Assembly (NCBI GenBank): GCA_039000165.1
Contig: JAWBTW010000002.1
Location: 3,245 to 67,244, forward strand
Direction: 5' to 3'
Length of the DNA: 64,000 nucleotides
Origin: Candidatus Aenigmatarchaeota archaeon
GTDB taxonomy: Archaea; Aenigmatarchaeota; Aenigmatarchaeia; CG10238-14; SCSR01
The position numbers and the translations under genes are program-made. Below the pieces are notes generated by a model. It did not search any database, had not been told where the DNA came from, and worked only from the letters and a program-made list of their open reading frames with translations. Shown piece after piece: positions 7,052-51,639 of this stretch; positions within the stretch are counted from its first letter, which is position 1; each line of letters starts with the position of its first letter.

Positions 7052-7482
7052 GCAATACTTTTGAAAGACTCTTCTAAACTTTCTATCTTTTTCTTTATAA
7101 CATTCATTTGTTTTTGGACTTCTGACTTTCTCTGAAGCAAAGCTGCTTTTTTCTCTTCTAACGTTTTAATCGACTGTTCTACTTTTGCTTTTTCGTTTCT
7201 TAATTTTTTTAGCTCTTCTAGCGTTTGATTCAAGTTTTTAAGTATGTCAGAAGAAAGTTCTTTTTCCAATTTTTTCCCTGTTTCTTTCAGAACTTTTATT
7301 TGCTTTTTTATTTCCTTAACAAAAGTTTCCATACCTTTTATTTTTTCTACTTTTGGTTTAGCCACTTTCTTCTTCTCTTTTTTCTTCTCTGTTTTTTTAA
7401 CTTCTGCTTTCTTTTCTTCTTTAACCTCTATTTTTTCTTCTTTCTCCTCCTTTTTTAAGGAAGGAGCTGGAATTTCAAACAT
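7048..7482 (-). CDS. Lys/Glu-rich coiled-coil protein
   Basis: Highly charged heptad-like sequence. Overlaps the upstream membrane protein gene by 8 nt. Confidence 0.4.
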   Translation of the reverse strand: MFEIPAPSLKKEEKEEKIEVKEEKKAEVKKTEKKKEKKKVAKPKVEKIKGMETFVKEIKKQIKVLKETGKKLEKELSSDILKNLNQTLEELKKLRNEKAKVEQSIKTLEEKKAALLQRKSEVQKQMNVIKKKIESLEESFKSIA

Positions 7483-8929
7483 TTTTCACCTCCTTAATCT
7501 CCAGATACTTTCTTCCATCCTCTTCTTTAACTACAGCTTCAACCCAATAAGTGCCTCTATCAATTAGTTTATCATAAGTTCCGTAAATTATTGCACTATC
7601 ATCTTCTAACTTGTAAATATGAGGAATTCCGATAGCATGAAGTGCAACGCTAGCTTTTACTCTTACTATATCTCCAACGTTAAACTTCTTAACTATATCT
7701 TCTATTTTCTTTACTTTTATTTTCTTTGGAACAGCCAACTTAAGAACTTCAGGCTTAACTTCCACTTTTGGAACTTCAAGCCTAACCTCTTCAGGTTTAA
7801 TTTCAGGTTTGGTTGGCTTTTCTTCTAGCACAACTTTTTCCTTCAAAGCCTCTTCTGGCCTGACAATTCTCGGTTTTTCCTCTTCCTCTTTTGGTCTTGG
7901 TGGTTTTGGCTTTGGAAGTTTTATCGGCTTAAAAACAACTTTTTGCTTAACAAAAATTCCTATCAAAGCAATTGCTAGAGCAATTACTACTCCTAAGTAA
8001 ATGAAAGTGAAATCCAAAGCTCTTTCTACTTCGCAACTTCTTTTTTCAACTATTGGCAAGCAAACATAACCAGTTTCATTCCCGCAAACGTACCTTATTC
8101 TGCTTTGCTCATTATTCACGCAAGCAGTCCAATCAGTATCGGAAGGACAAAGAGGACAAGAGGGAATTGGTATAGCCACTTCTTCTTTGTAAGTTCCTAT
8201 TGAAAATAAACTTAAACCCCAACATTGTGAATAGTAATAATAGTAATCAGAATCTTCGTGAATTAGCATTGTAAAAAGTTTTTCCCAACTTTTTTCCTTG
8301 AATTTAAACATAGAAATAATAGAAGCGTTATTTATTCCTTTTTCTCTGAACCAACTCTTTTCAACCTTGAACTTAAACTTTAGCCTGAAAATATCTTGAG
8401 AACTTGAAATAATTTGAATGTAAGTGTAATCGTTTTCGGAAGAAGAGTTAACGTAAGCTGGTTTTTCAAAAAGTCTTTCTATAGTAAGGTTAAGCTCGTT
8501 CAAGTTTGTTTTTGTTTCGACTATTAGAGCAATTATGCTTAGACTTTTTTCAGAAGGAATTTCAACATAAACTGGAATAAAAGAGGAGAGATTTTTAAGG
8601 ACTAAGGAAAAATTGTAAGGCGAAATTGAAATGTTGGGAGGAATATAAATTGTTGGTCCTCCGCCTCCTGGTGGACCTGGGCAAATACCACAGTCTTGTG
8701 GACAATTGCTACAAGTTTCTCCATTTTCACAAACCTCATTGCCACACACATTTGGTTCGAAAACTTTAACGTTTATAGGTGTTTGACCTGAATGAAAAAG
8801 TTGAGCGTAAACTGAAGATGGTACTGTAAGAAATAGTATCAAGAAAAACAAAATGGTTTTTTTCATAATTATATTTTCTCCTTTGAGGTTAAAATAATTA
8901 AAAAACCAAAACGCATATAAGCTACTCAT
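7475..8929 (-). CDS. single-pass membrane protein with Cys-rich extracellular domain and Pro/Lys/Glu-rich cytoplasmic tail
   Basis: Signal peptide, a Cys cluster (CGNEVCENGETCSNCPQDCGICPG), a TM segment at about aa 310-330, KPE repeats and a roughly 75-aa C-terminal domain. Confidence 0.5.
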   Translation of the reverse strand: MSSLYAFWFFNYFNLKGENIIMKKTILFFLILFLTVPSSVYAQLFHSGQTPINVKVFEPNVCGNEVCENGETCSNCPQDCGICPGPPGGGGPTIYIPPNISISPYNFSLVLKNLSSFIPVYVEIPSEKSLSIIALIVETKTNLNELNLTIERLFEKPAYVNSSSENDYTYIQIISSSQDIFRLKFKFKVEKSWFREKGINNASIISMFKFKEKSWEKLFTMLIHEDSDYYYYYSQCWGLSLFSIGTYKEEVAIPIPSCPLCPSDTDWTACVNNEQSRIRYVCGNETGYVCLPIVEKRSCEVERALDFTFIYLGVVIALAIALIGIFVKQKVVFKPIKLPKPKPPRPKEEEEKPRIVRPEEALKEKVVLEEKPTKPEIKPEEVRLEVPKVEVKPEVLKLAVPKKIKVKKIEDIVKKFNVGDIVRVKASVALHAIGIPHIYKLEDDSAIIYGTYDKLIDRGTYWVEAVVKEEDGRKYLEIKEVKNV

Positions 8930-16730: not shown

Positions 16731-17222
16731 TTATTCTTGGTCTGGATACTTTTCCACTTCTTTTTTCTTTATTTCAAGCTTAACTCCTGCTTTTTTAAAG
16801 AATTTTTTTGTCAAAGCTGAGTCGTGATAGTCTTTTTCTGCTACCACTCTTTTAATTCCTGCATTTATTATCATCTTTGCGCAGGTAAAGCAAGGTACAA
16901 ATTTCACGTACAGAGTTGCATCTTTCGTGGAAACACCATGCAAAGCAGCTTGAACTATTGCGTTTTGTTCAGCATGAGTAGTTCTTATACAATGTTTTTT
17001 CTTTTTCCCTGTTACTGGATCTATAGTTTCAGTTAATAAGTGCCCAACATCATCGCAATGTGGTAAACCAGAAGGTGCCCCTACATAGCCTGTAGTTAAA
17101 ATTCTTTTATCCTTGACTATAACTGCCCCGTTTCTTCCTCTATCGCATGTTGCTCTTGTGCCAACAACTTTCGCAATCTCCAGAAAATAATCATCCCAGC
17201 TTGGTCTTTTATATTTCTTCAT
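16731..17222 (-). CDS. dCMP/cytidine deaminase family protein
   Basis: Zinc-binding HAEQNAI and PCFTCAKMIINAGIKRV motifs. Confidence 0.8.
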   Translation of the reverse strand: MKKYKRPSWDDYFLEIAKVVGTRATCDRGRNGAVIVKDKRILTTGYVGAPSGLPHCDDVGHLLTETIDPVTGKKKKHCIRTTHAEQNAIVQAALHGVSTKDATLYVKFVPCFTCAKMIINAGIKRVVAEKDYHDSALTKKFFKKAGVKLEIKKKEVEKYPDQE

Positions 17223-22763: not shown

Positions 22764-23054
22764 TTATTGTTCAGAATATAAAATTTGCATCATTTGATGA
22801 TATATCTTGAGAAATCTTTTTCCTTTTTCTGTTATTTGGTAAGTTATAGGTGAATTTTTCTGCTCGAGTAAACCACAGCTTAAAACCCTTCTAAGGTAAC
22901 GTTCAAGTTGAGTAAAGCTTAAGTTGGCCTTGTACATTATATGTGTTTTGTTTATTGGTCTTGAGGCGAGAGATAGTATATCTGCTATTATTTTAAATTC
23001 TTCTCTACGCGTTTCTTTCTCTTCTTTTGCAAGATTGTTTTTTAAATAAAGCAT
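22764..23054 (-). CDS. small winged-helix DNA-binding protein
   Basis: 96 aa with wHTH-like pattern. Weak. Confidence 0.3.
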   Translation of the reverse strand: MLYLKNNLAKEEKETRREEFKIIADILSLASRPINKTHIMYKANLSFTQLERYLRRVLSCGLLEQKNSPITYQITEKGKRFLKIYHQMMQILYSEQ

Positions 23055-29096: not shown

Positions 29097-29399
29097 ATGC
29101 CTATAACAGTTAAAGATATTCAAGAGATGTTTGGAAAGGATGTTTTCACAGGAAAGGGTTTTTATTGTGGAAAAGTTTCAGACGTTGAGCTTGACCTTTC
29201 AAGGTTCAAGATTAGAGCTTTAGTAATAGAAGCTGCAAAAGAATCTTTTCTTGCTAAATTGGTTGGGAGTAAAAAAGGCTTAGTAGTTCCTTACAGTATG
29301 GTTCAAGCAGTTGGTGACATAGTAATTATCAAGCACATTCAGACACCAGAAGTTAGCGAAGAAGGAGAGATGGCCGAAACACAAACTGGAGCTGTATGA
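29097..29399 (+). CDS. PRC-barrel domain protein
   Basis: 100 aa with an archaeal PRC-barrel-like pattern (VSDVELDLSRFKIRALVIE...VPYSMVQAVGDIVIIKH). Preceded by a GGAGG RBS. Confidence 0.6.
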   Translation: MPITVKDIQEMFGKDVFTGKGFYCGKVSDVELDLSRFKIRALVIEAAKESFLAKLVGSKKGLVVPYSMVQAVGDIVIIKHIQTPEVSEEGEMAETQTGAV

Positions 29400-29662
29400 A
29401 CGAAGGAAAAAAACCACAAAGAACAAAGGATTTAATTTGGAGTAAAGCTGGAGATGTTTATCTCCTTCTTGATAAGGATACTAACGAAACTTATACTCTT
29501 GATCCAATAGCTTTTCTTGTTTGGATTCAGTGTGATGGAAAATCCGACATAGAGCAAATAGTTGACGTTTTCTCAGTAAACGGAAATAGAGATATAGTTA
29601 AGGCTGCTATTCTCGGGATTTTGGAAAAATTACAAAAATCTGGTTTAATCAAGTGGGTTTAA
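29396..29662 (+). CDS. PqqD-family (RiPP recognition element-like) protein
   Basis: 88 aa. YLLLDKDTNETYTLDPIAFLVWIQCDGKSDIEQIV...LQKSGLI matches the PqqD/RRE pattern. Start overlaps the PRC-barrel stop (ATGA). Confidence 0.6.
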   Translation: MNEGKKPQRTKDLIWSKAGDVYLLLDKDTNETYTLDPIAFLVWIQCDGKSDIEQIVDVFSVNGNRDIVKAAILGILEKLQKSGLIKWV

Positions 29663-29798: not shown

Positions 29799-30947
29799 TT
29801 ATCTAATTATATCGATTCCCAATGTTTCGCTGACTTCCTTGACAACTGGTCTTTCGTAAGTTACTGGACCTAGAATGTAAGGTGATTTTACTCCTGTAAT
29901 TATTGCAATAACTTGAACCTTTCCTTCAAATTCTGGTAAAATTCTAGCTCCCCAGAAGACTTGGGCGCTTGGGTCTAAGTGTTGAGAAACAGTTTCTCCT
30001 ATTATGTTTACTTCTTCTAGCTTAAGATCTGGCCCACCTGTGATGTGAATCAAAGCTCCGGTTGCTCCTGTGTAATCAACTTCTAACAAAGGATTGAGCA
30101 AAGCTTTTGTTATAGCGTCTCTTGCTCTATCTGAGCTGTTACTTTCACCAACACCTATTGCAGCAACTCCTCCTGTGTGCATTACTGCTTTAACGTCTGC
30201 GTAATCTAAGTTCACTAGGCTTGGTAAAGTAATGGTTTCGGTTATTCCTTTGACCATGCTTGCTATTAGTTCATCAGCTACCGCAAAAGCTTGCTGTATG
30301 GATAAGTTACCAGCATACTTCAAAAGTTTATCGTTCTCTATTACTATAACGGTATCTGTAACTTGTCTAAGAGCAGCCAAGCCTTGCTCTGCTTTTGAAA
30401 TTCTTGCCCCTTCTAGCTTGAAAGGCATAGTAACTACTGCTATAACAATTGCCCCCATACTTTTAGCAATCTCACAAACTACTGGTATACTTCCTGTACC
30501 TGTTCCTTTTCCCAATCCTGCTATGGCAAAAACTAGGTCGGCTCCTTCCAAAGCTTCTTTAATTTCGTTTCTTGATTCTTCTGCACACTTTCTTCCAATT
30601 TCTGGATAACCACCACAACCTAAACCTTTTGTTAACTCCTTTCCTATCAAAATTTTCTTGTCAGCTTTTCCTACTGCTAAATGTTTTGCGTCTGAATTTA
30701 AAGAAACAGTTGTTGCTCCTTCTATTCCCATTTCTGTTAATCTTGTCACAGCATTTTGACCTGCTCCTCCGCATCCTACTACAACAATTTTCGCTTTCTT
30801 AACTGAAAATCCAAACTCTTGCTCTGCTAGTTTATAATAATCAACACTAGAAAACGTTGCTCCTGAAGTTGATTCTAACCTAAACCTGGTTTGAGGAGAA
30901 TCCTCGCCGAATGTTCTCTTCAAAGCGCTTTGAACAATACTTTCCAT
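29799..30947 (-). CDS. ftsZ: cell division GTPase FtsZ (tubulin/FtsZ family)
   Basis: N-terminal GTP-binding motif VVVGCGGAGQNAV, tubulin signature AGLGKGTGTGS, T7 loop region. About 50-aa N-terminal extension. Confidence 0.85.
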   Translation of the reverse strand: MESIVQSALKRTFGEDSPQTRFRLESTSGATFSSVDYYKLAEQEFGFSVKKAKIVVVGCGGAGQNAVTRLTEMGIEGATTVSLNSDAKHLAVGKADKKILIGKELTKGLGCGGYPEIGRKCAEESRNEIKEALEGADLVFAIAGLGKGTGTGSIPVVCEIAKSMGAIVIAVVTMPFKLEGARISKAEQGLAALRQVTDTVIVIENDKLLKYAGNLSIQQAFAVADELIASMVKGITETITLPSLVNLDYADVKAVMHTGGVAAIGVGESNSSDRARDAITKALLNPLLEVDYTGATGALIHITGGPDLKLEEVNIIGETVSQHLDPSAQVFWGARILPEFEGKVQVIAIITGVKSPYILGPVTYERPVVKEVSETLGIDIIR

Positions 30948-31059
30948 TCCAATCCTCCCATTTTCAACAAAATATATTTTGTTTCATCGAAAACCATTTA
31001 TAAAGGTTTTCCACTATTTTATCTTAGAATTAGTCAAGTCTAAGTTGTAACTAATTCAA

Positions 31060-31114
31060 ACCCGTACAAGACCCGTAATTTAACCCGTAAATTTTAACCC
31101 GTGTTTAAACCCGT
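31060..31114. promoter_or_regulatory. array of five phased ACCCGT motifs (11-14 bp period) upstream of ftsZ
   Basis: ACCCGT at 31060, 31071, 31083, 31097 and 31109, each in an A/T-rich context, 113-167 bp upstream of the ftsZ start codon. Confidence 0.4.
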
Positions 31115-31404
31115 AAAATTCTTTTATTCTAAGTTATTTAAATTGATTATTGTAGAATTTTCTATATTTTTTTGTAACTATTTTTGTTAAACTTTTATGT
31201 TAAGCAAAAATTTTTTTGAAAAAATTTCCCACATAAGTTTAAAGATTTTTGAGGAGGAAAATCTAAAAAAGGTGAGAAGGTTGGGCAACCGTCAAAACTT
31301 TGAAGCAAGAGGATGAAGATTTCTTTAGTTTTATCGCTATTCTTGACGATCGCGGAAGAATTGATGCAATTTGTTTGCGAAGAAGTGAAAAAATGCAAGA
31401 AAGA

Positions 31405-31452
31405 ACTTAAAATTTTTGGGAGGGAAAGGGGTTCAAATCTCCCCCAGAGCGT
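31405..31452 (+). other. orphan tRNA 3'-half-like element (T-arm plus acceptor 3' strand)
   Basis: GGGAG..AGGGGUUCAAAUCUCCCCCAGAGCG has a canonical T-loop with flanking stem and acceptor strand. No complementary 5' acceptor, D-arm or anticodon arm in cis. Confidence 0.3.
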
Positions 31453-31483
31453 AAAAATTTAACTATATTATTAAAAAAATTAA

Positions 31484-32791
31484 GTGATGGAGATGGAATT
31501 TACTGAGATAGAAGAAGTGTTGAAAAAGGGGAAGGAAGGAAAAGTTTTTATTAGAGGTTGGGTTTATGGAAAGAGAAGCTCTGGAGGGATACTGTTTTAT
31601 ATAGTAAGAGATGGTTCTGGCTTCATTCAATGCACTCTTAAAAAAGAAAAGTTTGATGAAAAAACTTTTAAAGATTTGGAAAAACTAACTTTGGAATCAG
31701 TAGTTGAAATAGAAGGAACCTCTAAAAAAGAGCCAAGAGCACCTGGAGGTTATGAAATTGCTGTTGAAAAAGTTAAGGTTATCCACAAATCCTTAGAGGG
31801 ATTTCCTATCGCAAAAAAATACCACGGGCCAGAATTTTTGCTTGATTATAGACACTTATGGTTAAGAAGCGAGAAAATGCAAACGATTCTTAAAATAAGG
31901 TCAAAAGTCTTACAAATAGCAAGAGAGTGGCTTCTTTCTCATGGCTATAAGGAATTTCATTCACCAAGTCTAACAGGAGCAGCATGCGAAGGAGGAGCAA
32001 CACTCTTTGAGGTAAATTATTTTGGAAAGAAAGCTTACTTAACTCAAAGCTGGCAACTTTATGCTGAGGCTGCAATCTCAAGCCTAGGAAAAATTTTTAC
32101 TGTAGCTCCTTCATTTAGAGCTGAAAAGTCAAGGACAAGGAGACATTTAACAGAGTTTTGGCATCTTGAAGTTGAAGAGCCATTTTGTGATTTGGAACAA
32201 ATTATGAAAGTACAAGAAGAATTTATAACCCATATTTGTCATACTCTTGCAAAGGAAATGCCTGAAGAGTTAAAGAAGCTTGGAAGAGACCCTCAAGACT
32301 TACTTAAGATCAAACCACCTTTTCCAAGGATAACTTATGATCAGGCAATAGAAATGCTTCAAAAAGATGGAGTTAAAATTAAGTGGGGTGATGACATAAC
32401 ATGGGTTTTGGAAAAAAAGTTAGCTAGCAAGTTTGATGTTCCTTTCTTCTTAACTCATTTTCCGAAAGGAGTTAAAGCTTTTTACCATAAACCTGATCCT
32501 AAAAGGCCTGAAGTTACTTTAAGTGCAGACATGCTTGCTCCAGAAGGTTATGGAGAAATTATTGGAGGTGGCCAAAGAATTCATGATTTAGAAGAATTGA
32601 TTCAAAGAATAAAAGAAGAAAAACTTGACCCAAAAGCCTACGAGTGGTACATAGATTTAAGAAGATACGGCTCAGTACCGCATGCAGGTTTTGGTTTGGG
32701 AATAGAAAGGTTTATAATGTGGATCTGCAAGCTCAAACATATAAGAGATGCTGTACCATTTCCAAGGTTAATAAACAGAATTTATCCTTAA
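31484..32791 (+). CDS. asnS: asparaginyl-tRNA synthetase (class IIb; AspRS not fully excluded)
   Basis: OB-fold N-terminus, LLDYRHLWLR, motif 2 PSFRAEKSRTRRHLTEFWHLE, motif 3 GFGLGIERFIMW, and a C-terminal ...AVPFPRLINRIYP tail as in archaeal AsnRS. Confidence 0.75.
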   Translation: MMEMEFTEIEEVLKKGKEGKVFIRGWVYGKRSSGGILFYIVRDGSGFIQCTLKKEKFDEKTFKDLEKLTLESVVEIEGTSKKEPRAPGGYEIAVEKVKVIHKSLEGFPIAKKYHGPEFLLDYRHLWLRSEKMQTILKIRSKVLQIAREWLLSHGYKEFHSPSLTGAACEGGATLFEVNYFGKKAYLTQSWQLYAEAAISSLGKIFTVAPSFRAEKSRTRRHLTEFWHLEVEEPFCDLEQIMKVQEEFITHICHTLAKEMPEELKKLGRDPQDLLKIKPPFPRITYDQAIEMLQKDGVKIKWGDDITWVLEKKLASKFDVPFFLTHFPKGVKAFYHKPDPKRPEVTLSADMLAPEGYGEIIGGGQRIHDLEELIQRIKEEKLDPKAYEWYIDLRRYGSVPHAGFGLGIERFIMWICKLKHIRDAVPFPRLINRIYP

Positions 32792-32826: not shown

Positions 32827-32910
32827 GGGCTCGTCCGGTAACCTGGATAGCCGACTGCGCTTCGGTTTTGAGGAAACGCAGTAGTGAGGGTTCAAATCCC
32901 TCCGAGCCCA
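32827..32910 (+). tRNA. tRNA-Arg (anticodon UCG) with a 10-nt intron at 37/38
   Basis: Acceptor GGGCUCG/CGAGCCC, T-arm GAGGG-UUCAAAU-CCCUC, anticodon stem CUGCG/CGCAG enclosing 17 nt. Exon CUUC pairs with intron GAGG, leaving an AAA bulge and a 6-nt loop (BHL). The intron is at 32866-32875. Confidence 0.75.
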
Positions 32911-40466: not shown

Positions 40467-41123
40467 ATGAGTCTTTCGATAATGGGAATACTTTACGATT
40501 TTGACGGAACCATAGTAAAATCAGATAAGTTTATAAGAGAAACTTATTACGAGATTTGTAAAGAAATGGGAATAAAACCTAGCTTGAGTTACAGAATGTT
40601 GCAACGCTTACACTATGACTGGAAAAAATTTTTGAGAAGGCAAAAAATAGATCCAGAAAAAGCAGAAGAAGCTTATAAAAATAAAACTGATAAAATAAAA
40701 GTCATACCAGAAGTGAAAAAGGTTCTGAAGTACAATAAAAAACATGGAAAAATTCAAGGTATAGTAACTCATTCTCCAAGAAGTGCTGTTGAGGAAATAG
40801 CCAGAAAAAATAAAATTGAAGAGTATATAGACGGAATGATAACTTGGGATGAAATAGAGGAAAGAAACTTAAGACCAAAACCTGAGCCTGATGCTTTGGT
40901 TTGCTTGGCAAGAGACTTAAATTTAGAAACAAAAAAATGTCTTTATGTGGGAAACAGCAAGGAAGATATTATCGCTGGAAAAAGGGCTGGCATGTTAACC
41001 TTAGGGTTTTGTTGTGAACGTGATTTAAGAGTTATAGCAAGATTAAGAGCAGCAAACCCGTACTTTGGTGTTATAACTTCGCCTCAACATCTTTATATAT
41101 ATTTCCAACGTCTAATTTTTTAG
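40467..41123 (+). CDS. HAD-superfamily hydrolase (phosphoglycolate phosphatase-like)
   Basis: Motif I LYDFDGTIV, motif II VTHS, motif IV LYVGNSKEDIIAGKRAG. Confidence 0.7.
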   Translation: MSLSIMGILYDFDGTIVKSDKFIRETYYEICKEMGIKPSLSYRMLQRLHYDWKKFLRRQKIDPEKAEEAYKNKTDKIKVIPEVKKVLKYNKKHGKIQGIVTHSPRSAVEEIARKNKIEEYIDGMITWDEIEERNLRPKPEPDALVCLARDLNLETKKCLYVGNSKEDIIAGKRAGMLTLGFCCERDLRVIARLRAANPYFGVITSPQHLYIYFQRLIF

Positions 41124-45193: not shown

Positions 45194-45490
45194 ATGGAAA
45201 AAACCTTTGAAGAAATGCTTGAAAGCGTAAGAGTAAAGAAAGTCTCTCAACTTACAGCAAAAGTTTTTGAAATTATTCATTCTAGATGGCCCACAAATCC
45301 GCTAGAAGTTGCTGAGATTTTAGGAGATAAAGGAAAAGAGAAAACGCTTTCTGCAAAGTACCTTTACCATTTTCGCAAGCTTAAGGAAATGGGGTTAATA
45401 GACATGAAAAAAGTTGGAAACACTTACATAGCATGGCCTACTGAGATTGAAAAGCTTAGGGTTGTGCATGAATTATTAAAAGGGTTGTGA
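45194..45490 (+). CDS. small winged-helix protein (putative regulator)
   Basis: 98 aa with a wHTH-like pattern. First gene after palindrome copy 1. Confidence 0.4.
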   Translation: MEKTFEEMLESVRVKKVSQLTAKVFEIIHSRWPTNPLEVAEILGDKGKEKTLSAKYLYHFRKLKEMGLIDMKKVGNTYIAWPTEIEKLRVVHELLKGL

Positions 45491-49010: not shown

Positions 49011-50291
49011 TCATTCACCCAAAACCTCAATTCCGTTCATGTAAGGAACCAAAACTTTTGGAATTTTCACGCTCCCGTCTTTTTGCTGGAAGTGTTCGAG
49101 AATGGCTAGCATGGTCCTGCTTGTCGCTAAGGCAGTAGAGTTTAAAGTATGGACAAAACCTTTTGGTTTTTCTCCTTCCTTTTCTCTAAACCTAATGTTA
49201 AGCCTTCTTGCTTGGTAATCTGTGCAATTAGAGTTTGAGCCTATTTCCCTAAACTTTCCGTCAACCATCCAAACCTCTGTATCGTACTTTTTTGCCGCTA
49301 CTGTTCCTATATCTCCTGTGCAAACGTTTACTACACGGTAATGCAAACCTAAAGCTTGATAGAGCTCCTCACAATTTCTTTGCAGCTCTTCGTGCAAATC
49401 CCAGGAATCTTCTGGCAAGCAAAAAATGAATTGCTCAACCTTGTTAAACTGATGCATCCTGAAAAATCCTTTCGTGTATTTTCCGTGCGTACCTATTTCT
49501 TTTCTAAAACATGGACTTATTCCAACAAACTTCAAAGGCAAGTCTTTTTTATTTAAAATTTCATTCATGAACATTGCTCCTATAGGATGCTCAGAAGTTG
49601 CTATCAAGTATAAATCTTCATTCTCTATTTTGTAAGTTACCATTTCAAAATCGCTTGGGTCTATCATTCCTTCGTAAGCTTTTCTGTTTATCATGAAAGG
49701 AGGCTCTACAGGAATATAGCCTTTTTTAATCATAAAATCTAGAGCAAACTTTTGAATGGCTAGATCGAGCAAAACCAATTCTTTTTTTAAGTAGAAAAAG
49801 CCTGCCCCAGCAACTTTTGCTGCCCTTTCTTGATCTACCAAACCCAACTCTAAAGCAATTTCTAGATGATTTTTTGGTTTAAAGTTAAACTTTGGTGGGG
49901 AACCAACTCTTCTTATTTCAACATTATCGTTTTCATCTTTACCAAAAGGTACAGAATCGTGCAAAATGTTCGGTAGCTTGAGCAAAATATCCCTTACTTC
50001 TTTTTCCAGTCTGCTCGACTCTTCTTCCATTCTTTTTATTTCGTCATGGATTTTCTTAGCTTCGTTTAAGATTTTGCTTGTATCCTTGTTTTCTTTCTTC
50101 AACCTTGAAATTTCTAAAGTAAGTTTGTTCCTTCTGTTTCTCAGCTTGTTTATTTCTGTTTTGAGGCCACGCAATTTCTTGTCAAGCTCTAAAAGCCTTT
50201 CGAACATTTTCAATTTTTCCGGGTCTTGCCTCTTTTCCAAATTTTTCCTTACAAACTCTGGCCTCTCTCTTATCAATTTAATGTCAAGCAT
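49011..50291 (-). CDS. serS: seryl-tRNA synthetase
   Basis: N-terminal coiled-coil arm (MLDIKLIRERPEFVRKNLEKR...), class II motifs FRKE and GSNSNCTDYQARRLNIRF. 426 aa. Confidence 0.9.
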   Translation of the reverse strand: MLDIKLIRERPEFVRKNLEKRQDPEKLKMFERLLELDKKLRGLKTEINKLRNRRNKLTLEISRLKKENKDTSKILNEAKKIHDEIKRMEEESSRLEKEVRDILLKLPNILHDSVPFGKDENDNVEIRRVGSPPKFNFKPKNHLEIALELGLVDQERAAKVAGAGFFYLKKELVLLDLAIQKFALDFMIKKGYIPVEPPFMINRKAYEGMIDPSDFEMVTYKIENEDLYLIATSEHPIGAMFMNEILNKKDLPLKFVGISPCFRKEIGTHGKYTKGFFRMHQFNKVEQFIFCLPEDSWDLHEELQRNCEELYQALGLHYRVVNVCTGDIGTVAAKKYDTEVWMVDGKFREIGSNSNCTDYQARRLNIRFREKEGEKPKGFVHTLNSTALATSRTMLAILEHFQQKDGSVKIPKVLVPYMNGIEVLGE

Positions 50292-50355: not shown

Positions 50356-51639
50356 TTAAAAAAAGTCAACCAATAACCATTTCCACAAAGGCTTAAAAAC
50401 AATTTTTTTGTTTTTTATCTTTTGTTGACCTTCATAATCCCAGGTTATCACTAGCAAATCTTTACATTTAAGTTCTTTGCTTGCCTTTATTAAAGACCTA
50501 ATTTCCCTTTTCTCAACCTCATCTTTACTAGAAGCATAAGTAACTTGAATTAGTTGATTGATTTTTAAACCTTTTTTCACGGCAAAATCTACCTCAAAAT
50601 CGTTCGATTTGAAGTAAAAAATTTCATCAACTTTTCCTTCAAACTTTTTTCTCAAAAGAGAAATAGCTACCAAGTTTTCCATTTTTTTCCCAAAATCTTT
50701 TGAAAACCTTGGTTCAATCGCAAAGTAAACATTATCTACCAAATAAATCTTTGCAGGATACTTTGCTCTTTCTCTGTACTTTAAAGAAAATCTTTTTATC
50801 GGAAAAACAAACAAAGCCTCTTCCACATACCTCAAATAATTCGCTAAGGTTTTTTTGCTAACTTTCAAGCCGATCGATTTCAATTCTTTTTCAATTTTTG
50901 TTAATGAGATATAGGAGGAAGAGTTTGCTATGCAATACCTAACAAAATAATCCATAAGTGTAACATTTTTTATTTTAAACCTTTCTATCAAATCCTTAAA
51001 AAATACGGTAGTAAAATAGGTTCTTGCTATTTCAATTTTCTTGTTTTTCTCGTCAGCAAGAAGAATTTCAGGATACCCTCCAAAATCAAGAAATTCTTTC
51101 AAAAGCATTAAAATTTCACCAACCTTTGCCTTAGAAATTTCTTCCCTAACTACAAACTTTTTTAGCTTAAGAAACTCTTTAAAGGTAAAAGGAAAAATTA
51201 TATAAGGAATACACCTTCCCCTTAGCTCGGTTGAAATCTCTCTGCTTAAAAGTTTTGAAGAAGAACCAGAAATTATTATTTTATATTTTTGGAAATTGTG
51301 CAAAGTTCTAACGAACGAAGGCCATTCTTCTAACTCTTGAATTTCGTCCAAGAAAAGAAAAACTTGATTTTTAAACAGTGAATTTACTTCCTTTAAAAAC
51401 TCAGAAACACCAATTTTTCTTACTCTTGGGTCGGTAAAATCTATGTAAACAACATTATCTTTGGAATTATTCTTTTCAAAGAGCTCTTTTATTAGCTGGA
51501 ACATAAAATAGGTTTTACCAGCTCTTCTTGGTCCTATAAGGGAAACTATGTGCTTGTTTATCCATACCTTTAAATCTCTCTCGATTATATCTTGCGGTAG
51601 TTCTTTCTCTTTCCACTCTAGTAAAACCTCTCTTAGCAT
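50356..51639 (-). CDS. AAA+ ATPase, COG1373/DUF4143 family
   Basis: Walker A GPRRAGKT, Walker B FLDEIQ, C-terminal DUF4143-like region. 427 aa. Confidence 0.75.
   Translation of the reverse strand: MLREVLLEWKEKELPQDIIERDLKVWINKHIVSLIGPRRAGKTYFMFQLIKELFEKNNSKDNVVYIDFTDPRVRKIGVSEFLKEVNSLFKNQVFLFLDEIQELEEWPSFVRTLHNFQKYKIIISGSSSKLLSREISTELRGRCIPYIIFPFTFKEFLKLKKFVVREEISKAKVGEILMLLKEFLDFGGYPEILLADEKNKKIEIARTYFTTVFFKDLIERFKIKNVTLMDYFVRYCIANSSSYISLTKIEKELKSIGLKVSKKTLANYLRYVEEALFVFPIKRFSLKYRERAKYPAKIYLVDNVYFAIEPRFSKDFGKKMENLVAISLLRKKFEGKVDEIFYFKSNDFEVDFAVKKGLKINQLIQVTYASSKDEVEKREIRSLIKASKELKCKDLLVITWDYEGQQKIKNKKIVFKPLWKWLLVDFF

Follow-up and report, generated by a model that had tools for sequence, protein, structure and literature searches.

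Introduction

To our knowledge, the regulation of FtsZ-based cell division in archaea is known only from haloarchaea (CdrS/CdrL). The DPANN archaea are genome-reduced and mostly symbiotic. Direct repeats of about 11 bp that vary in copy number and allow the cooperative binding of several protomers occur as PhoB/OmpR-type boxes, as SARP heptads, as the parC iterons of ParR, and as the metbox arrays of MetJ. At the RNA level, the GGA sites of CsrA and the (G/U)AG repeats of TRAP are G-containing repeats located in unstructured A/U-rich RNA, which are flexibly spaced and vary in copy number; we know of neither CsrA nor TRAP in archaea.

In Haloferax volcanii, the CdrS motif precedes transcription starts by 41-110 nt; at ftsZ1, it is found at -50 (PMC8406309). 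CdrS itself is reported from all the major groups of archaea, with the exception of DPANN (PMC7439475). In Methanococcus maripaludis, the fla promoter has four 6-bp EarA sites that directly precede its BRE (PMC5512572).

In this study, we describe a tandem array of a short motif upstream of ftsZ. It was found in a stretch of 64,000 nucleotides, in the following termed the window, which archaeal RNase P RNA and the relatives of its FtsZ place in Candidatus Aenigmatarchaeota, a DPANN group of very small archaea that are uncultured. The protein collection searched contained no record for the FtsZ of the window, and searches of the literature on archaeal or Aenigmatarchaeota ftsZ promoters, on repeats and on CdrS yielded no description of such an element. 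The features of the locus are listed in Table 1.

Table 1 Features in and around the ftsZ upstream region of the window
Feature	Position	Strand	Remarks
ftsZ, 382 aa, Tubulin and FtsZ_C domains	29799..30947	-	closest named relatives Candidatus Aenigmatarchaeota
Shine-Dalgarno sequence GGGAGG, 6 nt before ATG	30954..30959	-	GGAGG or GGTG conserved in all relatives
HP3, perfect 18-bp palindrome AACAAAATATATTTTGTT	30966..30983	.	
27-mer GGTTTTCGATGAAACAAAATATATTTT, composed of the HP2 3' arm and half of HP3	30969..30995	-	invariant bar 3 positions in six loci
HP2, GAAAACC - TTTATAAAT - GGTTTTC	30989..31011	-	sense-RNA hairpin or BRE/TATA-like 'mid' promoter
HP1, inverted repeat GAATTAGT-N15-ACTAATTC	31027..31057	.	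just after the last unit, overlapping the tail of this unit
Tandem array, five units	31055..31116	-	29 distinct related loci carry homologous arrays (1-8 units)
Predicted transcription start region, motif TTTTAC followed by G on the first repeat unit	31110..31118	-	predicted from its distance to the TATA-like box
Distal promoter-like element, TATA-like TTTAAATA (31135-31142), before it A-rich AATAATCAA (31143-51)	31135..31151	-	
Remnant of AbrB/SpoVT-like ORF, 21 aa	31300-31362		71% identity
Remnant of class II aaRS-like paralog, 29-aa piece	31343-31426		
tRNA 3'-half-like piece	about 31413-31452		
Class II AsnRS/AspRS-type gene	31484..32791	+	

The tandem array in the window

The array is located in an intergenic region of 536 bp (30948-31483). 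On the + strand, the hexamer ACCCGT starts at 31060, 31071, 31083, 31097, and 31109, which corresponds to spacings of 11, 12, 14, and 12 bp and to a distance of 113-167 bp upstream of ftsZ; these positions were reproduced exactly as given in the original prediction, and the copies are indeed embedded in A/T-rich flanks (AAACCCGTA, AGACCCGTA, TAACCCGTA, TAACCCGTG, and again AAACCCGTA). Read in the ftsZ sense, the array has the sequence TTAC-GGGTTTAAAC AC-GGGTTAAAATTT AC-GGGTTAAATT AC-GGGTCTTGT AC-GGGTTTGAA. With both strands of the 64 kb considered, there is just one further ACCCGT, the sixth, at 41056 within an ORF.

An enrichment over randomised sequence, which had been named as a condition of the original prediction, held for the clustering of the motif and failed for its overall frequency. 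When the window was simulated 150 times with a first-order Markov model, the densest 60-bp stretch contained one ACCCGT in 146 runs and two in a single run, compared to the observed 5, whereas the total of 6 copies is close to the expected 4.5, so that the count is not unusual and the clustering alone is. Tandem Repeats Finder (TRF) classifies the array as a weak tandem repeat with a period of 12, 3.7 copies, and a score of 53. The proposal that the copies are phased on one face of the DNA does not apply to this array: for a helical turn of 10.5 bp, the phase angles of the sites are 0, 17, 69, 189, and 240 degrees, with a resultant R of 0.17, and the sites fit a period of 12.25 bp instead.

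The unusual length of the intergenic region and the orphan tRNA fragment within it, to which the array had been linked, are both real, yet they have a separate origin. In a related locus (L023), the equivalent space is occupied by an AbrB/SpoVT-like ORF of 63 aa, a class II aaRS-like paralog of 313 aa, and a tRNA-Asn. Since this cassette is intact in L023 and present in pieces in the window, the long spacer and the tRNA fragment are attributed to gene decay that is separate from the array. The AbrB/SpoVT-like ORF, which is divergent from ftsZ in L023, was considered as a candidate regulator and rejected; it is confined to the lineage of L023 and the window and has decayed to 21 aa in the latter.

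Conservation and specificity of the array

Upstream regions of ftsZ were obtained in two sets, the first by protein-based look-ups (loci L001-L008 and L040) and the second by a metagenome scan with an ftsZ-adjacent 27-nt sequence (31 loci), the scan pattern having been chosen as near-invariant in six loci that had been found via the FtsZ protein alone. All 29 distinct related loci carry the array at the same position and on the same strand relative to ftsZ. The conserved unit in the ftsZ sense is H-GGG-T-T-W-A-A, i.e. GGGTT(W)AA, which reads TT(W)AACCC on the + strand of the window, and it is present in 1-8 copies per locus with a median of 5. In the 127 GGG-aligned units of these 29 arrays, the base preceding the G-run is A in 52, C in 38, T in 32, and G in only 5 cases; the G-run is exactly three long in 96% of the units and is followed by T (124/127), T (108/127), and W-A-A.

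The bases flanking this core differ by lineage. TCGGGT is the form found in the lineage of L010, L021, and L028, TAGGGT or TTGGGT that of L006 and L009, and GTGGGT that of L012 and L020, and already the closest relative (L040, FtsZ 96% identical) mixes ACGGGT, TAGGGT, and AAGGGT. Thus, the claim of a recurring motif linked to ftsZ is borne out, but not the choice of ACCCGT as the unit: a C precedes GGG in less than a third of the aligned units, and the hexamer is the flavour of one lineage of a GGGTTWAA-type unit. The homogeneity of the flavour inside each array points to turnover by duplication. The distance from GGG to GGG in the relatives is most often 11 (24 times), 12 (16 times), 13 (11 times), or 10 nt (7 times), with a further 13 cases at 20-21 nt, which are those with a decayed middle copy, and a total range of 6-33 nt. 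The modal spacing of 11-12 is near a helical turn and is equally that of a tandem duplication of an 11-12-nt unit. Only one or two GGG units are left in L016, L024, L025, L026, and L033.

The loci compared are deeply diverged. Their FtsZ proteins are 84-96% and their AsnRS proteins 61-72% identical, and at third codon positions ftsZ is only 49-50% identical to that of L001 and L007; because the lineages are this deep, the persistence of the GGGTT core is not a matter of mere inheritance. The array also accompanies ftsZ irrespective of the upstream gene (window, L001, L004, L006, L007, and L008): asnS is divergent from ftsZ in the window, L001, and L004, an asnS-tRNA arrangement is co-oriented with ftsZ in L006 and L008, and a different ORF is located upstream of ftsZ in L007. 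In the relatives, the array keeps one orientation and is anchored at either end.

For other arrays, both strands of 425 kb were scanned, comprising the window and 39 loci and thus ftsZ neighbourhoods plus about 64 kb, with a cluster defined as at least three GGGT[TAC] spaced 6-16 nt. This search for further arrays, which the original prediction had suggested as a check for the genome, returned a uniform answer, as every cluster of at least three units in the 425 kb is an ftsZ array located upstream of the gene in the ftsZ sense, and no second target was present on either strand of the sampled DNA. The distance from the final unit of the clusters to the 27-mer is 71-73 nt; it falls to 54-55 nt where the HP1 loop contributes one more GGG to the count. 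Elsewhere in the window, GGGTTWAA occurs at chance level (8 other copies compared to 8.15 expected overall). A scan of a genome collection with the pattern GGGTTAAAN{0,7}GGGTTAAAN{0,7}GGGT gave, among the matches listed, unrelated bacteria and no DPANN genome.

Taken together, these comparisons support the view that the array is genuine, linked to ftsZ, and subject to selection. Its long conservation and its absence elsewhere in the sampled DNA make it very likely that it serves a dedicated on/off or dosage control of cell division.

Promoter-like elements and dyads upstream of ftsZ

In the ftsZ sense, the region is composed of the distal TATA-like box, a spacer of 19-25 nt, TTTAC-purine coinciding with the first unit, the array, HP1, HP2, HP3, the Shine-Dalgarno sequence, and the ATG; as a composite, this control region spans about 200 bp. 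The distal promoter-like element is located 20 nt upstream of the first ACGGGT in the window and is retained in the relatives in the form (A)A(T/A)(G/C)N-TTT(T)A(A/T)(A/G), the distance from its TATA-like box to the first GGG unit being mostly 22-23 nt. The RNase P RNA promoter of the window has a matching geometry, with TTTATAAG followed by 23 nt and then the G that starts the RNase P RNA. We infer that the distal element may act as a promoter and that transcription probably starts at the first unit, where TTTAC followed by a purine is present in most relatives.

Two further conserved TATA-like elements are found closer to the ATG, one formed by the HP2 loop with its GAAAACC arm and one at the centre of HP3. 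The HP2 BRE/TATA-like 'mid' element predicts a leader of about 26 nt, similar to that of the PRC-barrel gene. The units are located 45-105 bp upstream of this element, yet downstream of the distal one, and as judged from the sequence, each of these elements may be the ftsZ promoter. The conserved Shine-Dalgarno sequence implies that the ftsZ mRNA is leadered. A scan for bacterial-type promoters and terminators, which is unsuited to an archaeon, gave nothing above expectation.

Of the three dyads, HP1 is missing from L001, L016, and L024; in the majority of the relatives, its folding energy is -8 to -12 kcal/mol. Its upper stem co-varies by clade (TAGA/TCTA versus TAGG/CCTA), and a strand test revealed no preference for the sense RNA, the antisense being slightly better in 15 of 26 sequences. 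HP3 may be either a hairpin just before the Shine-Dalgarno sequence or a site of the operator or TATA-like type. Among the distinct sequences, 9 close it with A-U and 9 with G-C, whereas these two bases are unpaired in 10, and HP3 was the sole helix predicted by MAFFT and RNAalifold for the stretch from the last unit to the ATG (-1.5 kcal/mol).

HP2 is the one result that discriminates between a reading of the region as RNA and a reading as DNA. Its mean folding energy is -11.1 kcal/mol as sense RNA versus -8.0 kcal/mol as antisense (reverse complement), with the sense being better in 25 of 28 sequences, and the gap is large where the 5' arm is altered, as in L033 (sense -13.7, antisense -0.5 kcal/mol, with 5 G.U among 14 pairs), L024 (-9.3 and -2.9), L012 (-9.6 and -3.8), L032 (-11.6 and -5.8), L016 (-9.2 and -3.8), and L008 (-11.8 and -6.8). 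The substitutions in the 5' arm, at least 10 in number, are all A>G or C>U and hence wobble-preserving in ftsZ-sense RNA, a test that reduces to the statement that only transitions are seen, since any transition in this A/C-rich arm keeps the pairing, and in which the 3' arm is fixed by the 27-mer search pattern. In L001 and L033, the arm is without the BRE-like sequence, yet the helix is extended into CGAUGA. In a covariance-model alignment, 85% of the cells pair compared to 59% when slid by one column; the pair counts for HP2 are understated, as the ungapped alignment sets its arms in differing registers and the covariance model left the register unchanged. Because the 5' arm of HP2 lies upstream of the 'mid' TATA-like box, a sense transcript that contains HP2 must start farther upstream, and the distal element would be the obvious candidate for this start.

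The leader as a whole is not stabler than its shuffles (fold z = +0.5), and the array is mostly unpaired in both the MFE and the centroid structure. A search of positions 30900-31520 against Rfam gave chance-level hits only, the best with E = 0.079 and far below the gathering score. Two further candidates were rejected: a uORF (MKQNIFC*) starting in the 27-mer, which is without a Shine-Dalgarno sequence and too near the TATA-like box for a leaderless start, and a K-turn/C-box reading of CGAUGA, for which no consistent C-stem could be drawn.

A proposed transcribed ftsZ leader and alternative readings

The original prediction of an ftsZ regulatory element thus stands with respect to the link to ftsZ and to selection, while the binding of a transcription factor to double-stranded DNA, as it was then envisaged, is one of two live readings. 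The other, which we favour tentatively and in the knowledge that it may well prove wrong, is that the repeats belong to a transcribed leader of ftsZ, in which they would act as a multi-site landing pad for a regulator. Transcription would begin at the distal promoter with the predicted start on the first unit, and the ftsZ leader would be long, with about 165 nt in the window. The array would form its unstructured, G-tract-bearing 5' end, followed by HP1-HP3 and then the Shine-Dalgarno sequence. The units would constitute a multi-copy pad on which a sequence-specific factor acting in trans, probably a protein that binds RNA, could land, and this factor would set the stability or the translation of the ftsZ mRNA. 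The copy number would shift between 1 and 8 by slippage or duplication while selection retains the GGGTT core. Transcription of the array, the action of the effector on RNA, and ftsZ dosage as the output are all deduced, and should be read as predictions. Spacings of 8-16 nt and the toleration of decayed copies fit independent sites on RNA better than a rigid cooperativity on DNA.

Against a leader counts the nearer 'mid' BRE/TATA, which would leave the array as untranscribed upstream DNA, and also the presence of T5-T6 runs inside the putative leader in many relatives. A test for the avoidance of T-runs as a sign of read-through had no power, as T5 runs are enriched in the coding-region control of this clade. 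The array ends 96 nt upstream of the Shine-Dalgarno sequence (31055 versus 30959), with HP1-HP3 in between, and overlaps neither the ribosome-binding site nor a terminator. As a more specific form of the leader reading, the GGGUUWAA array could confer post-transcriptional control of division in Aenigmatarchaeota, with the units titrating or recruiting an RNA-binding factor or serving as standby or decoy sites for the ribosome and with the copy number tuning FtsZ dosage; we regard this conjecture as rather unlikely in its particulars. If true, it would represent a Csr/TRAP-like logic that is new for archaea.

The alternative that the array is a set of double-stranded DNA sites for a transcription factor or an architectural protein, which would either activate the HP2 core promoter or repress or roadblock the distal one, is a credible possibility, albeit one that we place on the doubtful side. 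The array is located at about -88 to -141 from the predicted start of the HP2 core promoter, and this 'mid' element yields a leader of standard, Shine-Dalgarno-led type. The modal spacing of 11 bp and the double units of 20-21 bp are near the helical repeat, the unit recurs as an inverted pair around the 'mid' TATA-like box (GAAAACCC ... GGGTTTTC), and there are archaeal precedents in EarA (PMC5512572) and CdrS (PMC8406309). Evidence to the contrary comes from the lack of phasing in the window and the wide spacing in the relatives, from the gap of about 45 bp between the nearest unit and the BRE-like element, which are not adjacent, from the absence of a second target in the 425 kb, and from the HP2 5' arm of L001 and L033, which drops the BRE-like sequence and retains the wobble pairing. 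No transcription-factor gene is consistently found nearby: a Pfam search of 20 ORFs of the window revealed no regulator next to ftsZ, the wHTH protein detected (HTH_45) being 8 kb away, and CdrS is reported to be absent from DPANN (PMC7439475).

A hypervariable tandem repeat without function, kept by slippage and flanked by the only functional sequences, would be in line with a TRF score that is no higher than that of many other weak repeats in the window, with the fast turnover of copy number and flavour and their homogenisation within arrays, and with the five loci that are down to one or two GGG units. We nevertheless consider it improbable, since the array occupies the same position in 29 of 29 lineages in which only about half of the ftsZ third positions are identical, since its core is near-invariant at a depth where neutral sites are near saturation, and since a comparable cluster was not found elsewhere in the 425 kb.

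In the window, the strand with the ftsZ sense has five G3 tracts in surroundings poor in C, and many relatives have 4-8 tracts; these could also be taken as a G-quadruplex in the non-template DNA strand or in the RNA leader that modulates transcription or translation. This is very unlikely given loops of 8-11 nt, a mean G4Hunter score of 0.63 with a maximum of 0.88 in a 25-nt window, which is below the usual cut-off of 1.2, and the presence of fewer than four GGG tracts in 7 of the 29 arrays, with mostly GG in L025. A G-run of exactly three together with the conserved TTWAA points to sequence-specific recognition and not to stacking.

We give equally little credence to a divergent non-coding RNA on the + strand that would start at HP2 as BRE-TATA-BRE, contain AACCCGUA repeats, and end at a T7 run (about 31166-31172). 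HP2 is symmetric in its BRE/TATA-like character, so that its invariant arm would serve the antisense direction, and HP1 folds slightly better in this direction, but the wobble pattern of HP2 suits sense RNA only, the antisense fold has a z of -0.1, and neither an Rfam match nor a target complementarity was found. Finally, a replication origin, iteron, or centromere-like element, with Orc1/Cdc6 ORB-type or ParR-type 11-bp iterons beside an AT-rich unwinding region, can practically be dismissed in spite of the direct repeats of about 11-12 bp, the very AT-rich stretch next to them, and the unusual length of the intergenic region, as Orc1/Cdc6, Rep, and partition genes were not found near ftsZ (among the ORFs of the window tested and at five loci over 10-20 kb), all units are direct and none is inverted around an unwinding element, the units are, as we take it, unlike ORB or mini-ORB motifs, there is no skew switch at 31 kb, and the long spacer is accounted for by gene decay.

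Comparison with known systems

The array, the three dyads, and the 27-mer together are conserved, exclusive to ftsZ in the sampled DNA, and easily recognised, and they provide a handle on the control of division in DPANN. The array is usable as bait for its regulator, the element can be scored in metatranscriptomes for mapping the ftsZ transcript, and the variation in copy number represents a natural dosage series. Should an ordinary transcription factor prove to be the regulator, the array would be no more than a new operator from a phylum that has received little study.

Among the operators with repeats of about 11 bp, those of PhoB/OmpR, SARP, ParR, and MetJ keep a strict spacing, whereas the units described here are 6-33 nt apart, with a mean of 12.25 in the window, and no partition or two-component genes are located nearby. 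The sites of CsrA and TRAP overlap or sequester the Shine-Dalgarno sequence or a terminator, whereas the array is nearly 100 nt or more from the Shine-Dalgarno sequence and its transcription is a prediction.

The two archaeal systems are nearer in setting. EarA sites resemble the array in being several clustered copies of a short motif, which in the case of EarA precede a single archaeal promoter and govern a single operon; they differ in that they adjoin the BRE, whereas here the nearest unit is about 45 bp away and the array is preceded by a promoter-like element of its own, and in their motif, which is TACATA for EarA and GGGTTWAA for the array. The CdrS site is an archaeal cis element tens of nucleotides upstream of an ftsZ promoter that ties ftsZ expression to a dedicated regulator (PMC8406309; PMC7439475), and the array may be such an element as well. 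CdrS, a ribbon-helix-helix protein, recognises a single, roughly symmetric motif and has a regulon of 18 sites, whereas the element described here is an array of 1-8 direct repeats found, in the sampled DNA, only at ftsZ, and no ribbon-helix-helix gene is located near ftsZ. The array is of the multi-site cis-regulatory kind and, CdrS being reported to be absent from DPANN, may be the DPANN-side solution to the control of ftsZ.

The ftsZ upstream region

What is left of a decayed gene cassette lies at 31290-31455 (+ strand), in the spacer between ftsZ and the class II gene resembling asnS (asparaginyl-tRNA synthetase). The cassette is intact in L023, a related locus retrieved by a metagenome scan with a 27-mer, and its decay in the window explains the unusual length of the intergenic region upstream of ftsZ. 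The remnant comprises pieces of three genes (see table), and no 5' partner was found near the acceptor complement (GCTCTGG) of its tRNA-like piece. The 27-mer itself, GGTTTTCGATGAAACAAAATATATTTT, is located between the array of GGGTT-type units and the ftsZ start codon; it is more highly conserved than the third codon positions of ftsZ, with just three variable positions among the loci found by protein similarity. An ATG within it opens an upstream ORF of 7-12 codons (MKQNIFC...), the significance of which is doubtful.

Features in the window and in two related ftsZ loci
Feature	Position	Strand	Remark
27-mer	30969-30995	-	
AbrB/SpoVT-like ORF remnant	31300-31362	+	21 aa left, 71% identity
Class II aaRS-like paralog remnant	31343-31426	+	29-aa piece
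tRNA 3'-half-like piece	about 31413-31452	+	
tRNA	32827-32910	+	Rfam, 46.6 bits; missed by ARAGORN
tRNA-like gene, L006	9567-9657		91 nt, directly downstream of asnS
tRNA-like gene, L008	9547-9637		91 nt, directly downstream of asnS
PRC-barrel gene and overlapping PqqD-like gene	29097-29662	+	convergent with ftsZ
GTTAGACGTCTAAC, exact	45094, 48841, 50341, 51711		
GTTAGACGTCTAAC, two mismatches	48986		
98-aa ORF	45194..45490		helix-turn-helix-like sequence
Seryl-tRNA synthetase	49011..50291		
AAA_14/DUF4143 ATPase	50356..51639		
Protein genes preceded by a TATA-like 8-mer and without SD, examples	7475..8929, 16731..17222, 22764..23054		

tRNA genes

ARAGORN detected no tRNA-Asn in the window; in five related loci (L001, L006, L007, L008, and L023), tRNA-Asn adjoins asnS. 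The tRNA identified in the window by Rfam may contain an intron or be atypical in some other way. The tRNA-like genes of L006 and L008, to which ARAGORN assigned odd anticodons ('gtta', 'aaa'), look like tRNA-Asn with an intron. Both loci also encode an Lhr-type helicase with an internal intein carrying a LAGLIDADG domain.

Putative promoters and a probable operator

Many protein genes of the window have a TATA-like 8-mer ending 21-25 nt before the start codon and lack a Shine-Dalgarno (SD) sequence, which suggests that many of this genome's mRNAs are leaderless. A clear GGAGG is found in a minority of genes, including ftsZ and the PRC-barrel gene. The perfect 14-bp palindrome GTTAGACGTCTAAC, with four exact copies versus 0.09 expected, is probably the operator of a transcription-factor regulon unrelated to the ftsZ array; its copies are intergenic and surround the 98-aa ORF, for which Pfam gave no match, the seryl-tRNA synthetase gene, and the ATPase gene.

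Gene neighbourhood of ftsZ

GGGTT units are absent upstream of both the PRC-barrel gene and the PqqD-like gene. This pair stays near ftsZ in the relatives L004 and L007 and, since archaeal division proteins include PRC-barrel proteins (CdpB), looks like forming a small division gene neighbourhood together with ftsZ.
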